From contig JBMFOM010000055.1 of NCBI GenBank assembly GCA_049969615.1, positions 1 to 13,431 of the forward strand: DNA of 13,431 nucleotides, read 5' to 3'. The DNA is from a candidate division WOR-3 bacterium (GTDB lineage Bacteria; Hydrothermota; Hydrothermia; JBDRYB01). The notes beneath the pieces were generated by a model. The model had not been told where the DNA came from. It made no database searches and saw only the letters and a program-made list of their open reading frames with translations. Positions 1,777 through 9,471 of the stretch are shown piece after piece (position 1 is the first letter of the stretch; each line of letters begins with the position of its first letter). The translations under genes were made by a program, and so were the position numbers.

Positions 1777-1857
1777 TCTGGTTGTCAGTTGCCGGGTAAG
1801 GGGCCATTGTTTCCAGTTCAGGTTTTAGACTAAAGACAGGTAAGATCTGCTTGATAT

Positions 1858-2469
1858 TCACCACCTCACACCGACATATCCTTCTAGGACCACGAACCAG
1901 TCCGGGCAGGGCCAGACATCTGGCCTGAAGCCCATGTAGTTCAATCTGGCCGAAAGCCCCAAAATAATGTTGATAGTCTTTTCTACGTCGGGCCAAGGCC
2001 TGTATTTGCGCCAGTATTCGCCCCTTGTAAAAATCGTCAAGCCAGGGGTAACTTGGTCAATTTTAACCCAATCGCTTGCCCCATAGATTTGTTTTTCCCA
2101 GTGACAGAAGTTGCCAGTGAACCCCCCACCGATATGCGTGTGGATGGGATGGGATTGATAAACCATTTTTGAAAGACCCAGCTCGTAGGTGGTTATTCCT
2201 TCCGCGAGACTCGCGCCCACTGGCACATCGTTGAAAAAAACTATCGTCTTGTATTCCGGGTGGTCCATGTATCTAACTCGTATATAAGGCTCCAACCCAA
2301 GCGGAAACCCCTTGACATAGGTGGTCTGCAGGAAGAAGTTTGTCCAAATGTGATAACCCCAATCAACATAGCCGCAGACACTTTGGGCTGTAGCCCTTTC
2401 ATTCGGCGCGACTTTGCCCCAACCGGCCAAAACCTCTGCACTTATGCTTATCAGAGCTATCAAGATCAT
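1858..2469 (-). CDS. Hypothetical exported protein, probable outer-membrane beta-barrel
   Basis: GGAGG SD before ATG 2469; hydrophobic N-terminus MILIALISISA; alternating aromatic/Gly beta-strand pattern; ends LEGYVGVRW (BAM beta-signal-like terminal aromatic). Confidence 0.7.
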   Translation of the reverse strand: MILIALISISAEVLAGWGKVAPNERATAQSVCGYVDWGYHIWTNFFLQTTYVKGFPLGLEPYIRVRYMDHPEYKTIVFFNDVPVGASLAEGITTYELGLSKMVYQSHPIHTHIGGGFTGNFCHWEKQIYGASDWVKIDQVTPGLTIFTRGEYWRKYRPWPDVEKTINIILGLSARLNYMGFRPDVWPCPDWFVVLEGYVGVRW

Positions 2470-2484
2470 TTCTTTACCTCCATA

Positions 2485-2506
2485 ATTATAGAGTATGGGG
2501 TACCCC
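2485..2506 (-). promoter_or_regulatory. -10 box plus palindromic putative operator upstream of the barrel gene
   Basis: Minus-strand TATAAT at 2490-2485 followed by a short leader with GGAGG; perfect palindrome GGGGTACCCC at 2497-2506 in the promoter spacer. Confidence 0.55.
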
Positions 2507-2520
2507 TGCAAAAAGCTTTT

Positions 2521-2646
2521 TTATCTACCCTCTAGCACCAGAAGAGGTTGCACCAATAGAGGGGGGCAACTACAGCCGTAGACATACTTGACGCACGAGA
2601 TCATCTCCACTTGTATATCTTTCTCTGGTTCTATCAGATATGTCAT
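2521..2646 (-). CDS. Small Cys-containing peptide (41 aa), candidate RiPP precursor
   Basis: Not in the ORF track (too short). GAGGTGA SD at 2657-2651, then ATG 2646: MTYLIEPEKDIQVEMISCVKYVYGCSCPPLLVQPLLVLEGR*. The MxY(I/L)IxP start recalls Clo7bot-type Cys-rich radical-SAM target peptides (from memory). Confidence 0.6.
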   Translation of the reverse strand: MTYLIEPEKDIQVEMISCVKYVYGCSCPPLLVQPLLVLEGR

Positions 2647-2719
2647 GGTCTCACCTCTTTTATGGGTTTGGTTTTATCTTTCAGAGGTACCCCAAACTCC
2701 ACGAAAAGCCTCATAACCG

Positions 2720-2925
2720 ATGTATATCTTGGTGGCGGTTTTATCCTCTCCTGTTTTGTCCGAAGAGACTCCACTAGGGCTCGTAGGCACTATACGCAGT
2801 TTTATGGGATTGACGGGGCATTCCTGGGAACAGCCAATCTCTCGCCTGATGCGGTTGATGACTCCGGAAACATCTATCTCTTGGAGAAAGATAGCCTCAT
2901 CATTCTAAGGATAAAGGGGCAATAG
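2720..2925 (+). pseudogene. Internally deleted remnant of an exported NHL/6-bladed beta-propeller-like protein
   Basis: Leader-like MYILVAVLSSPVLSEE from ATG 2720, then a different frame encodes FYGIDGAFLG...AVDDSGNIYLLEKDSLIILRIKGQ* (propeller blade-like motif) ending 2925; junction near 2785-2795. Confidence 0.45.
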
Positions 2926-2940
2926 GAAACTATATAACGC

Positions 2941-2970
2941 GGCCCCGGTTTGCATATGCCGTGGCCTTTT
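2941..2970 (+). terminator. Possible rho-independent terminator
   Basis: GGCCCCGGT...GCCGTGGCC stem (one mismatch) followed by TTTT, between convergent stops at 2925 and 3011. Confidence 0.4.
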
Positions 2971-3010
2971 AGTTGGTTGAGTCCGGTCTTGGCACCCACA
3001 AAGAGCGCCC

Positions 3011-3634
3011 CTACACATCCGGAACCCAAAGGCACCTTCCGAGTCTCCTGGCCTTGCCGGTCCCTATGAAATACAGGGTGAGGGCCGCGGCGACCGCGTC
3101 AAGTGCGTCCGGGTCCAGTTTCTGCCAGATGTCCTTTCCGAGGTTCGGGATGAACTCAGCCAAAAGCAAGAGGCGCTGGAGCTGGCCCCGTTCGGAGCGC
3201 TTGCTCGCGAGGGAGCCATAGGAGCCTGCCCTTGATAACATGACGAAGCTCGCGTGGGGATAGACCTCATAGACCCTGCATTTTCCCCGGAATCCAGTTG
3301 CAAAACCATGGGCCTTGGGCTTTCCACGAAGACCCAGCATTTCCCTCGCCCGGGCGTGGAGACGGAGCATGTATCCTCCCACCGGAGGGAAGCTGGGTAT
3401 CCCCAGCTCCCAGAGGGCCTTTTCCTCATCTCGCCAGAACCTACCTTTCCTGGGAAGATATACCGGGCAATCAAGCGTGATCTCGGTTATCCCCACGCCC
3501 TTGATTATGTTCAAGAGCTCTTTTCTCGTCGTGAGCCGGAAGACCTCTTGCATTACCAGGCAATCATCCCCGGCTCTTATAATGGCCAGAACCGAGGGCC
3601 TTTTTATCGCAAGGTCTATTCCCGCGAAGATCAT
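3011..3634 (-). CDS. DUF429-family protein (predicted RNase H-like nuclease fold)
   Basis: N-terminal GIDLA, central LDCP, YEVYPHA and C-terminal DALDAVAAAL motifs typical of DUF429; TGATG coupling to the upstream gene at 3634. Confidence 0.8.
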   Translation of the reverse strand: MIFAGIDLAIKRPSVLAIIRAGDDCLVMQEVFRLTTRKELLNIIKGVGITEITLDCPVYLPRKGRFWRDEEKALWELGIPSFPPVGGYMLRLHARAREMLGLRGKPKAHGFATGFRGKCRVYEVYPHASFVMLSRAGSYGSLASKRSERGQLQRLLLLAEFIPNLGKDIWQKLDPDALDAVAAALTLYFIGTGKARRLGRCLWVPDV

Positions 3635-4392
3635 CAGTACATTATCCTCCCATCGGTTGTTCTGAGGCCTATTTGAAATATGACCGGATCATCAACCGGC
3701 CTGTATATGCCTGGGTCGTGAAGCCGCTCATACTCAATGAAAAACATGAGCGCGGCTCCTTTGCCCATTGCATATAGCCCTGCCTCGGCCCTGGTGTCTG
3801 CGTATGTGGCCCACGGATAGCCGTCCAGCTTGATTCCCGTGTCAAGGTAGGGCCCCCAGTTCCAGTCCGGCCTCAGCCTCGCTCCTGTCTCCCACGACCA
3901 CGCCAGGCCTGTTATCCTCTCGGTCGGATCATCAAGCCAGAGGACATATCTGTGAAGCCTGGTGTGAAACGGTTCCCAGATGATCCCCGTGTGGACGCTT
4001 GAGAAGATGAGTGTCCTCTCGTCCCGGTCAAGGTCGTGTTTGCAACGGTGGGTGAAGCCCAGCTGGGCGACGAGGCCCTTGATTCCCCAGGACAGGAGCG
4101 TCCCTTCCTCCCAATAGAGCGCGAGGGGCTGGAACCTTATGTTTGAGTGCGGGCTCGCGACCAGCTCGTTCGCGCCGTAGATGGACAGGCTTACCCCCTT
4201 TATCCTGAAGAGCTCAAGGAGTCCCCCTATCCGTATAGACCAGGCATAGGTTGTGTCCGGCAGGTATGTCCCGGCGGACGCCCACACGCCCATTGTTCCC
4301 AGGTAGGCCCCGCCAGTGTTCCCCAGGGGGTTCATCAGGACGCTCCTTCCGGGGAAGGGGACAACGAGCAACAAGAAAACCAGTCCGGCCAT
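3634..4392 (-). CDS. Hypothetical exported beta-barrel-like protein, paralogue 2 (HRCKHDLD)
   Basis: Hydrophobic N-terminus, Trp/Gly-rich beta strands; clear similarity to 4392-5150 (NPL, SIRxGGxLEL, FxPLAxxWEEG, GFxHxCKHDxD, EYERxHDxGxY, FQxGL); TGATG overlaps on both sides. Confidence 0.8.
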   Translation of the reverse strand: MAGLVFLLLVVPFPGRSVLMNPLGNTGGAYLGTMGVWASAGTYLPDTTYAWSIRIGGLLELFRIKGVSLSIYGANELVASPHSNIRFQPLALYWEEGTLLSWGIKGLVAQLGFTHRCKHDLDRDERTLIFSSVHTGIIWEPFHTRLHRYVLWLDDPTERITGLAWSWETGARLRPDWNWGPYLDTGIKLDGYPWATYADTRAEAGLYAMGKGAALMFFIEYERLHDPGIYRPVDDPVIFQIGLRTTDGRIMY

Positions 4393-5150
4393 CAGAAAAA
4401 CCCCCGTGGACTCAAGGTTTGCAGACCGACCTGGAAAAGATTCATGCCAGCAGGGCTCCCGTAAAGCCCAACATCGTGAATCCGCTCGTATTCAACGAAT
4501 CCTGCCATCATTGCGCCGGCATCGGCCGTGAATCCCCCAGCGCCTGCCCTCGCGTCAAGGCCCAGACCGTCCCTGTAGCCGTAGAGCCTGAGGCCTCCGT
4601 CCGCGGAAACCCCTTGGTCTCCTTTTGTCCTCCAGGAACCCCTTCCTTCAAGGCTAAAGAGGAGTTTTCCTTCCCTCGCCCGGGGGTAATCCTTCGCGTA
4701 GACATACAGATGCGCGAAAACCTGCGTGTGCTCGCAAAGCATTCCTCCGACGAGCCTTGTTCCCACGAGTATGCGTCTAGTTGTGTCAACATCGTGTTTG
4801 CACGAGTGAAGGAATCCCACCTGCCAGAACGCATCGCCGGCCGGCCCGGTTACCAGGAGGCCCTCCTCCCACCTCGCCGCGAGGGGATGAAATGAAATAA
4901 GGCCTCCCGGCGCGGAAGCCAGGACCTCCGACGAAGCGGCGATTGCCACGCTGTTGCCGCCCCACCTCGCCAGCTCAAGGAATCCTCCCATCCTGATGCT
5001 GAAGGAAAGCCCACGGTTCCCCGGATACCAACCGGCTATGGCCCATACGCCGGAAACGCTGAGATAACCGTCGTCTGTCTCATATAGCAGGGGATTCACG
5101 GTTATCCCCCTAGCAGGGGAGGGCATTGAGAGGATGAAGGCCACTAACAC
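4392..5150 (-). CDS. Hypothetical exported beta-barrel-like protein, paralogue 1 (HSCKHDVD)
   Basis: Same shared motifs as 3634-4392; a GTG start at 5150 gives the same length as the paralogue (252 aa), starts with a hydrophobic leader and lies 6 nt after TATAAT; ends in FF. Confidence 0.8.
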   Translation of the reverse strand: MLVAFILSMPSPARGITVNPLLYETDDGYLSVSGVWAIAGWYPGNRGLSFSIRMGGFLELARWGGNSVAIAASSEVLASAPGGLISFHPLAARWEEGLLVTGPAGDAFWQVGFLHSCKHDVDTTRRILVGTRLVGGMLCEHTQVFAHLYVYAKDYPRAREGKLLFSLEGRGSWRTKGDQGVSADGGLRLYGYRDGLGLDARAGAGGFTADAGAMMAGFVEYERIHDVGLYGSPAGMNLFQVGLQTLSPRGFF

Positions 5151-5156
5151 TGAAAT

Positions 5157-5162
5157 ATTATA
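5157..5162 (-). promoter_or_regulatory. -10 box of the barrel-barrel-DUF429 operon (leaderless)
   Basis: TATAAT-atttca-GTG on the minus strand; no SD; no good -35. Confidence 0.65.
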
Positions 5163-5253
5163 TTGTAGGGCCAGGTTCCTGTGCCTGGTCTCCTCACTAG
5201 ACGGAAGGGCAATTTGTGAGCGAACGCTGGTCGTTCGCGAGCGACCCCTATAC

Positions 5254-5283
5254 TTGAACAACTTGCATGGCCCGCGTTATCAT
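5254..5283 (+). promoter_or_regulatory. Promoter of fba (near-leaderless)
   Basis: TTGAAC (5254-5259), 18 nt, TATCAT (5278-5283), ATG 8 nt later; no SD. Confidence 0.55.
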
Positions 5284-8409: not shown

Positions 8410-8443
8410 ATTATAAACCGGGGAATGCTAAGGATTCATTAAG
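8410..8443 (-). promoter_or_regulatory. pstB promoter: -10 box (leaderless) with possible 11-nt-period activator repeat
   Basis: TATAAT (8415-8410)-ctaatc-GTG; CTTAAT (8443-8438) and CTTAGC (8432-8427) flank the -35 position, with no canonical -35. Confidence 0.6.
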
Positions 8444-8444
8444 A

Positions 8445-9264
8445 TTACCTGATGACGAGCTTTGTCCGGTAGGGATAATTTGCTGATCCCGCATACCTTA
8501 CCACTACCTTGCCCCTGTATGCTCCTGCCCTCCAGAGATAAACGTCCCTGCTCAACGAGACCCGGTTCGCATCCGGCTGCAGTTGCCCGTGTAAGCCAAC
8601 CTCCCGTCAACCGAGTAGATTGCTATTTCTGAGGATTTCCCGCAGAAGAACAGCAAGCCTCCCGGCGCTGGTGAAGAGACCACGGAAGGCCCAGGAAGAT
8701 CGTCCGATTCCTCTGTTTCCATCGGCGTGCAGACAGTAGCCATGGTGAGGCTTGGGGAAGTCGTGATCCAGGTTGGGGCTCAGTCCGGTGAGCTACAGGC
8801 CAAAAGGCCACTGGGCGAATTGACTGTAAACGTTGGCGAGCTCGTTGCTGGCGGATAAGCGCTCACGCAACCGGGGTAGTTCCCATTCGCATCCAGCCTC
8901 AGAATCACCGCATCGTTGTTGGCCCCGAACCTGTAGCCTGACGCTATGTAGCTCTCGTCAGTTCTTTGCGTGATTGACAGTGCGCCGTCAGTGCTGGTGC
9001 CTCCGAATATCCCGGCCCATGTCACAGAGCTAGACGCGTCCGTCTTCAGTATAATGAAGTCCTGGCCCACTAGGCGTTGCATGAGGCCTCGATCCTGAAC
9101 ACCAGGATGTCGTAGTTGCCAGCTCCCCAGCTCCGGGTGTTCCCTACCACGGGATAGCCGCTATCTCCGGCCTGTATGAGGAACTTTCCATGGTCAAAGT
9201 CGGTTCCCCCATATGATTTCGCAAACAGGCCCTGTGAAACAAGGACACATAGGAGTATGTCCAT
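8445..9264 (-). pseudogene. Frameshifted secreted repeat (beta-propeller-like) protein with T9SS-type C-terminal sorting domain
   Basis: Pieces in different frames: MDILLCVLVSQGLFAKSYGGTDFDHG... (9264-9070), ...WAGIFGGTSTDGALSITQ...ILRLDANG (9082-8780), ...IAIYSVDGRLAYTG (8743-8552), ...VYLWRAGAYRGKVVVR...YRTKLVIR* (stop 8447-8445). Confidence 0.75.
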
Positions 9265-9300
9265 TATGATCCGTAACCTCCGCGTTTCATCGCGCGTATG

Positions 9301-9306
9301 ATTATA
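9301..9306 (-). promoter_or_regulatory. -10 box of the secreted-protein pseudogene
   Basis: Minus-strand TATAAT followed by a ~30-nt leader containing GGAGG before ATG 9264. Confidence 0.45.
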
Positions 9307-9471
9307 CGGGAAAATCTGAAAGAAAACTAAAAAGATGGCCCTGGTTTTGACCAGCAACCGGTAACTGGCTCATGGCACAACCGACAGGTCTTCAACCGGA
9401 GCGCAGGGGAGGGGCGCGGCGGCCCTGGGCCAACCGTTCTGTTTTTGTTTCTGCGAGCAACGAGCAACCAT

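Follow-up and report, generated by a model that had tools for sequence, protein, structure and literature searches.

The closest described systems are Clo7bot, CefA/CefB and the sactipeptide and ranthipeptide maturases. Clo7bot originates in Clostridium, its substrate being a short Cys-rich peptide encoded beside the modifying enzyme, and the first-pass annotation ascribes an M-x-Y-[IL]-x-x-P leader to Clo7bot peptides. In CefA, the core Cys recur at every fifth residue. The auxiliary clusters of SPASM enzymes are recognised by the pattern C-x9-15-G-x4-C ... C-x2-C-x5-C-x3-C ... C. In mature sactipeptides and ranthipeptides, thioether bridges join the sulfur of Cys to an alpha, beta or gamma carbon. 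Sactipeptide and ranthipeptide maturases, including CteB/SCIFF, PapB and AlbA, are described in PMC10114670 as forming Cys thioether cross-links. Here, in a 13,431-nt stretch of DNA (the window), a short minus-strand ORF is very probably a genuine but disabled precursor gene, and is what can still be recognised of a RiPP cassette of two genes upstream of a predicted small outer-membrane-barrel gene.

In its present reading, the precursor-peptide gene occupies positions 2521..2646 of the minus strand (ATG at 2646, TAA at 2523-2521) and comprises 41 codons plus TAA, with the product MTYLIEPEKDIQVEMISCVKYVYGCSCPPLLVQPLLVLEGR. Its conserved part is the first 28 codons, which hold the leader and the start of the core, and the last 13 codons lie outside the ancestral frame. 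A Shine-Dalgarno-like GAGGTGA (2651..2657, minus strand) precedes the ATG with a gap of 4 nt and lies within the end of the maturase frame; relatives keep GGAGGTGA or GGAGGTAA at this place, and the conservation of the site inside the maturase 3' end fits translational coupling. The strong ribosome-binding site and the 41-aa Cys-rich ORF named in the first-pass annotation are both present as claimed. A C6 run (2561..2566, minus strand; G6 on the plus strand) follows the third Cys codon and forms a +1 frameshift site. Specifically, a single four-letter step (CCCC=P), equal to one C fewer, gives a reading of 37 codons (2532..2646, minus strand; TAG at 2534-2532) with leader MTYLIEPEKDIQVEMIS and core CVKYVYGCSCPLYWCNLFWC. 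This alternative reading has the length, the stop and the five Cys that had been proposed for it, and ends in ...CPLYWCNLFWC. Its core Cys stand at residues 27, 32 and 37, every fifth residue, corresponding to a 15-nt period, and the near-repeat reported for the tail consists of two 15-nt units that are identical at 12/15 positions.

Under a codon model trained on long ORFs of the window's genome, the peptide ORF scores 0.066 bits per codon versus 0.17-0.44 for the real genes of the window, so composition alone would miss the gene. Pfam and NCBIfam return nothing above threshold for the 41-aa ORF, a word-index protein search with the same ORF returns no match, and Rfam, tRNA and terminator scans of the window find nothing relevant. 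A cyclotide hit (PF03784, 14.9 bits, E 0.028, 13 residues) falls below its cut-off of 25 bits and is a composition-level match. The 37-codon gene is recoverable from the raw sequence despite the silence of Pfam, NCBIfam and the word index.

Homologous small Cys-rich peptides, which the first-pass annotation had proposed as a check on the gene, exist. A phmmer search of 1.84 billion representative proteins gives four matches at E<=0.001, namely P0002 (37 aa, E 5.3e-8), P0003 (57 aa, E 1.5e-4) and two repetitive proteins of 1044 and 784 aa that were set aside as composition matches. P0002, a metagenome peptide with the sequence MIYLIEPENDIRVEMIPCVKYVYGCDCPLYWCHLFWC, is 84% identical to the one-C-fewer reading of the window and aligns to the last residue, including the stop. 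The cluster of P0002 contains two further 37-aa members, P0006 and P0007, and all three end in LYWC-x-LFWC, which identifies the alternative frame as the ancestral one. A profile search adds one cluster only, a 42-aa peptide (P0009), bringing the distinct intact relatives to four. The exact 41-aa and 37-aa products of the window are absent from the protein collection, and the family totals three clusters with six member sequences among ~15 billion proteins; judged by these absent products and the single extra cluster, it is very rare. In the aligned relatives, leader residues 1-8 are invariant except residue 2, and the core is variable. The intact relatives combine the leader MTYLIEPE-x-D..EM with the Cys/aromatic core C-P-L-Y-W-C-x-L-F-W-C, in which Cys falls at about every fifth residue; a core with repeated L-[YF]-W-C units is unusual.

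These homologues bear on two other readings of the ORF. That it is a chance ORF in an intergenic spacer is next to impossible: the weak codon score would suit such an origin, as would the lack of a copy in two other genomes of the genus and a peptide profile that matches only the window across 64 genomes of the class, and against it stand significant homologues in which length, stop and position beside the maturase are conserved. Two weak peptide matches in G001, of the same genus (E 0.04 and 0.12), fall within ordinary genes, either on the opposite strand or in another frame, and are therefore noise; a profile search of genome contigs with the peptide alignment confirms no locus, and DNA and tblastx comparison of 2470-3010 with the relatives and the window's own genome finds no other copy. 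It is likewise extremely improbable that the 41-aa product with its new PLLV tail is a working unmodified small protein. The start and the Shine-Dalgarno-like site are intact, and the tail repeat was noted in the first-pass annotation to be conservative in both frames, as a working product would have it; the PPLLVQPLLV tail, however, occurs in no protein of the searched collections, the relatives align to residues 1-29 or 1-32 only, and the shifted tail scores -0.25 bits per codon.

A scan of metagenome contigs reveals four related loci with the peptide gene (L025, L026, L027 and L028). In L028, three genes follow one another on the same strand: a radical SAM maturase of 446 aa (327-1667), a 42-aa peptide MTYLIEPEKDTQAEMNACVKGVVSPCCSTYCPLVDCCGLFWC (1664-1792) whose ATG overlaps the maturase stop (ATGA), and a 205-aa gene (1856-2473) that is 58% identical to the 203-aa gene of the window. 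L026 has the same gene order. L025, which shares 91.4% identity with the window over 1857-2714, carries an intact 37-aa gene preceded by the last 35 maturase codons, open to the contig end, and of the L027 maturase, the contig includes the end only. Additionally, an intact maturase (55% identical) is present in L029 (G002:C38), a locus of the same-genus genome G002; behind it come GGAGGTGA and the start of a diverged peptide, MRYIWKPTEEHAESCWDICPTK, whose remainder is cut off by the contig end. A short gene that adjoins its modifying enzyme and combines a conserved leader with a more variable core is thus seen in L028 and L026; in the window, the enzyme is deleted. The cassette would therefore consist, where complete, of a radical SAM/SPASM maturase followed by a precursor of 37-42 aa started on the ATGA overlap. 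The lineage is of hot-spring origin, and some relatives are labelled 'candidate division WOR-3' by their sources. G+C content is 46-52% in the cassette and barrel gene versus 55-60% in the flanks (window 1857-3010, L025, L026, L028 and L029). For the cassette in the relatives, the value is 46-50%, which fits an accessory module that was possibly transferred.

Over 37 codons, the frame-corrected window gene is separated from that of L025 by 5 synonymous and 7 non-synonymous changes, giving a dN/dS of 0.26; against L026 and L028, the value is 0.10-0.26 over the first 24 codons, and that of the neighbouring 203-aa gene is 0.11. These ratios indicate a peptide family under purifying selection, and the window copy may be slightly relaxed, on small numbers of changes. 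For heterologous expression, L028 and L025 offer intact candidate copies.

The L028 maturase matches Pfam Radical_SAM (PF04055) with 65.8 bits (cut-off 29.5; E 6.7e-18) and carries the CX3CX2C motif as CNFACFYC at residue 104, as well as a SPASM cysteine pattern at residues 329-348 and 386-399 and at C414. The Pfam SPASM model (PF13186) stays below its cut-off in 5/5 orthologues, the best reaching 13.9 versus 21.5 bits. For the L028 maturase, the best NCBIfam model of 67 is the Clo7bot maturase TIGR04334, which aligns over residues 4-402 of 446 and gives 323.5 bits, short of the cut-off of 600. TIGR04463 comes second with 291.6 bits (cut-off 525) and CefB (NF038107) third with 230.3 bits (cut-off 600), and the models of PapB, the SCIFF maturase and YhhB score 126.9, 76.3 and 67.3 bits. 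Each of the three best models describes a peptide maturase that acts on Cys-rich substrates. Among solved chains, 5wgg is nearest (E 2.3e-19); it is listed as 'Radical SAM domain protein', and we take it to be the thioether-forming SCIFF maturase CteB. Taken together, these matches support the assignment of the relatives' enzyme as a putative radical SAM/SPASM peptide maturase. The ATGA coupling of the L028 homologue to an enzyme whose best model is TIGR04334 also bears out the RiPP-precursor part of the earlier suggestion.

By homology, the maturase would bind the leader and, by radical chemistry, cross-link core Cys to other side chains via thioether bonds. This chemistry is suggested by likeness to enzymes whose matches score below every curated cut-off, and an aromatic C-C (cyclophane) cross-link could be formed instead; such a link is conceivable in a core rich in Tyr, Trp and Phe, and the YhhB model is among those that respond. 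The enzyme belongs to a large superfamily: of 7999 candidates that were scored, 2858 proteins reach E<=1e-30. A scan of 272 genomes of the phylum finds a close maturase in G002 only and eight more genomes with maturases at 37-41% identity, and a maturase search of genome contigs reaches loci in Bacillota only, which are distant and have neither a clear peptide nor a TIGR04333 match. Among the genomes of the class, G036 matches the maturase seven times.

Unlike L028, the window retains only the end of this enzyme. A remnant, MRLFVEFGVPLKDKTKPIKEVRP, occupies 2643..2714 of the minus strand and consists of the last 22 codons plus a TGA that overlaps the peptide ATG (ATGA). With the L028 maturase as query, tblastn aligns to 2649-2714 of the window only (16/22 identical, E 0.003). 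Blastn similarity to L025, L026 and L028 ends at 2714 in 3/3 cases, so ~1.27 kb of the maturase gene is missing. In its place stands a replacement sequence of 296 nt (2715..3010) that has no resemblance to the maturase, no match to anything tested and no other copy in the genome. A 104-aa ORF on the plus strand (2611-2925) and open stretches on the minus strand (2674-3035) have no Pfam match and were dismissed as shadows of this spacer. The first-pass statement that no maturase is in the window holds for an intact gene, and needs amending for the trace formed by these last 22 codons. Elsewhere in the window's genome (98% complete, 203 contigs), the maturase gives 0 matches at E<=1e-20, and the two other SPASM proteins of this genome reach 87.5 bits or less on any model and are unrelated. 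The precursor is orphaned by this measure, although a maturase could sit in an unassembled gap between the 203 contigs of the 98%-complete assembly. The orphan, decaying state that had been proposed for the precursor is in accord with the 22 C-terminal maturase codons that are left and with the lack of an orthologue elsewhere. A deletion has removed all of the maturase except its last 22 codons, and, with no substitute maturase in the genome, the cassette probably no longer yields its product here.

The second lesion lies in the C tract at the Cys-Pro-Leu codons, which reads TGCCCCCTC (C5) in the intact L025, TGCCCCCCTC (C6) in the window and TGCTGCCCCTC (C4) in L026 and L027; L028 has no such run at the corresponding place. 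One extra C in the C5 tract would have replaced the last 10 core residues, including two Cys, by PPLLVQPLLVLEGR. In L026 and L027, the other frame gives PLYDCCPLFGC-stop, which is the family ending at the family stop position; one short run is thus frameshifted in opposite directions in two lineages. In the window, the frameshift would represent decay after, or together with, the loss of the enzyme.

Whether C6 is genuine bears directly on this proposal, as the extra C could instead be a sequencing or assembly error in a genome that encodes an intact 37-aa precursor, still without a maturase. Homopolymers are typical error sites, and, apart from the extra C, the shifted tail departs from that of L025 at a single nucleotide, which would suit a shift that is unreal or very recent. 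The public runs listed for the site are DNA only, one DNA run containing 0.15 of the query words; runs X2 and X3 yielded no contig, and the only run found (X1) has the site at a depth of 3.3. A 165-nt contig of this run covers 2418-2582 with no difference and shows C6; it comes from a second assembler, perhaps working on the same reads, and X1 is maybe the window's own source. The variation between C5 and C6 that the first-pass annotation had thought might appear in reads is answered in part: the X1 contig has C6 and no mixed lengths, at this low depth only. Against an error stand the 11 intact genes of the window, none of which is frameshifted despite 35 homopolymer runs of 5 or more, the C6 of the second assembler's contig, with the reservation about its reads, and the ~1.27 kb maturase deletion, which is impossible as a base-calling error. 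On balance, a miscalled C6 is unlikely, and the shallow depth of a run that is possibly the window's own source leaves it a minor but real chance.

A different account treats the tract as a slippage switch, in which lengths of C4, C5 and C6 toggle the end of the Cys-rich core, or in which tRNA-Pro slippage on CCC-C rescues the frame, so that shifted copies are partly expressed. CCC-C is prone to +1 slippage, and the opposite-sign shifts at one tract, C6 in the window and C4 in L026 and L027, are what such a switch would leave. A contingency locus would be expected to have a run longer than 5, however; the shifted alleles of the window and L026 adjoin a deleted or broken maturase, L028 lacks the run, and mixed lengths are not seen in the X1 contig, at its low depth. 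A switch of this kind is very unlikely; if true, it would make this a phase-variable RiPP precursor, and we know of none described.

Decay of the cassette, the reading preferred here, is also suggested by other losses among the relatives. In G001, a deletion of 1.64 kb relative to L026 has taken out the maturase together with the peptide gene, of which the last codons, CCGLFWC-stop, are left. In L026, two genes are interrupted: maturase and barrel gene each consist of two overlapping frames, with the break of the former at a run of T, and in L027, the barrel gene is intact, without the frameshift of L026. Because L026 has more short-run frameshifts and the L027 barrel gene is intact, part of the L026 'decay' could be assembly error. 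Within one genus, this accessory peptide cassette appears to have been lost in at least three ways, namely by deletion plus frameshift (window), by frameshifts (L026 and L027) and by a clean 1.64-kb deletion (G001), and such repeated loss can inform estimates of the frequency of relics among 'orphan' RiPP precursors. The locus would accordingly display a RiPP system being lost rather than a working product, and the annotation that suits 2521-2714 is that of pseudogene remnants rather than a functional gene.

The gene that follows the peptide in the window (1858..2469, minus strand) is intact and encodes a 203-aa predicted small outer-membrane beta-barrel with no Pfam or NCBIfam family. An AlphaFold2 model from a 10-sequence alignment is all-beta (mean pLDDT 74.8, pTM 0.70), and Foldseek matches it to the OmpA, OmpX, NspA and Ail barrels (E about 1e-5, TM 0.4-0.66). 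The barrel gene lies 3' of the peptide both in the window and in all four related loci (L025, L026/L027 and L028), and the genes beyond it vary (ribH in the window; a TPR protein, a beta-propeller protein and plsX in the others). It occurs in 3/41 genomes searched, all of one genus and each with two or three paralogues, and is present without the cassette in G001 and G002. The predicted barrel protein may act in export or self-protection. Its gene is separated from the peptide stop by a stretch with a promoter-like TTTGCA-16-TATAAT (2485..2512, minus strand), in a segment that is conserved in L025, L026 and L028 and occurs once in the window's genome.

On the other side of the replacement sequence, a DUF429 gene (3011-3634) lies downstream of two adjacent minus-strand genes (3634-4392 and 4392-5261) that encode proteins of 252 and 289 aa without a family match; these share F-x-P-L-A-x-x-W-E-E-G, H-x-C-K-H-D-x-D and E-Y-E-R-x-H-D and look like tandem paralogues. 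Further along the window, ~1 kb between pstB and cinA (8428-9440) contains short ORFs only, the largest being of 100 aa (8780-9082, minus strand) with no Pfam match.

The leader extends beyond the window family. Cys-rich peptides encoded beside the 37-41% maturases of the eight phylum genomes (L062-L069), kept as small ORFs with at least 2 Cys after off-frame and enzyme-overlapping ones were dropped, start with M-x-[YFW]-[IL]-x-x-P in 10/10 cases. Together with three members of the window family, the motif is present in 13/13 aligned peptides, which suggests that the leader pattern named in the first-pass annotation marks a broad superfamily. That part of the earlier comparison stands; the proposed tie to Clo7bot does not extend to family membership by TIGR04333. 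Among the phylum loci, L069 has three tandem precursors, and L064 and L065 encode peptides of 77 aa with ~16 Cys that match CefA weakly (18.6 and 11.5 bits). In relatives of the class (L031-L058), many other radical SAM/SPASM genes have adjacent short Cys-rich ORFs of several types, including ...ICGCFLTxCRK, ...AERCCERSQRCPNE and ...CGGxxRCG.

Set against the described systems, the window family resembles Clo7bot in that TIGR04334 is the best model for the relatives' maturase and in having as substrate a short Cys-rich peptide encoded beside the enzyme. It differs in that the maturase scores 323.5 versus the cut-off of 600 bits and in its lineage of uncultured hot-spring bacteria rather than Clostridium. 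The Clo7bot peptide model TIGR04333 (cut-off 31 bits) has no match at E<=10 in a six-frame translation of the window's own genome, and neither it nor any other NCBIfam model matches P0001, P0002, the L028 peptide or P0003 at E<=10; TIGR04065 (ocin_CLI_3235) has no match on the window, and the papers searched gave nothing on 'Clo7bot' or 'Cys-every-fifth'. With CefA/CefB (NF038108/NF038107), the family shares core Cys at every fifth residue and has CefB as its third-best maturase model; unlike CefA, it has three periodic Cys only, with bulky aromatic spacers, the window family gives no match to NF038108 (30 bits), and all scores lie below the cut-offs of 30 and 600 bits. With the maturases of sactipeptides and ranthipeptides, the relatives' enzyme shares the radical SAM core, a SPASM-like Cys pattern and 5wgg as its closest chain, whereas its sequence is distant from theirs, as the PapB (126.9 bits) and SCIFF (76.3 bits) scores reflect. 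Taken together, these comparisons support the window copy as a precursor turned pseudogene, from a rare and new subfamily within the Cys-rich radical SAM/SPASM RiPPs, which by curated models is a member of neither the Clo7bot nor the CefA family and would work in the manner of both.
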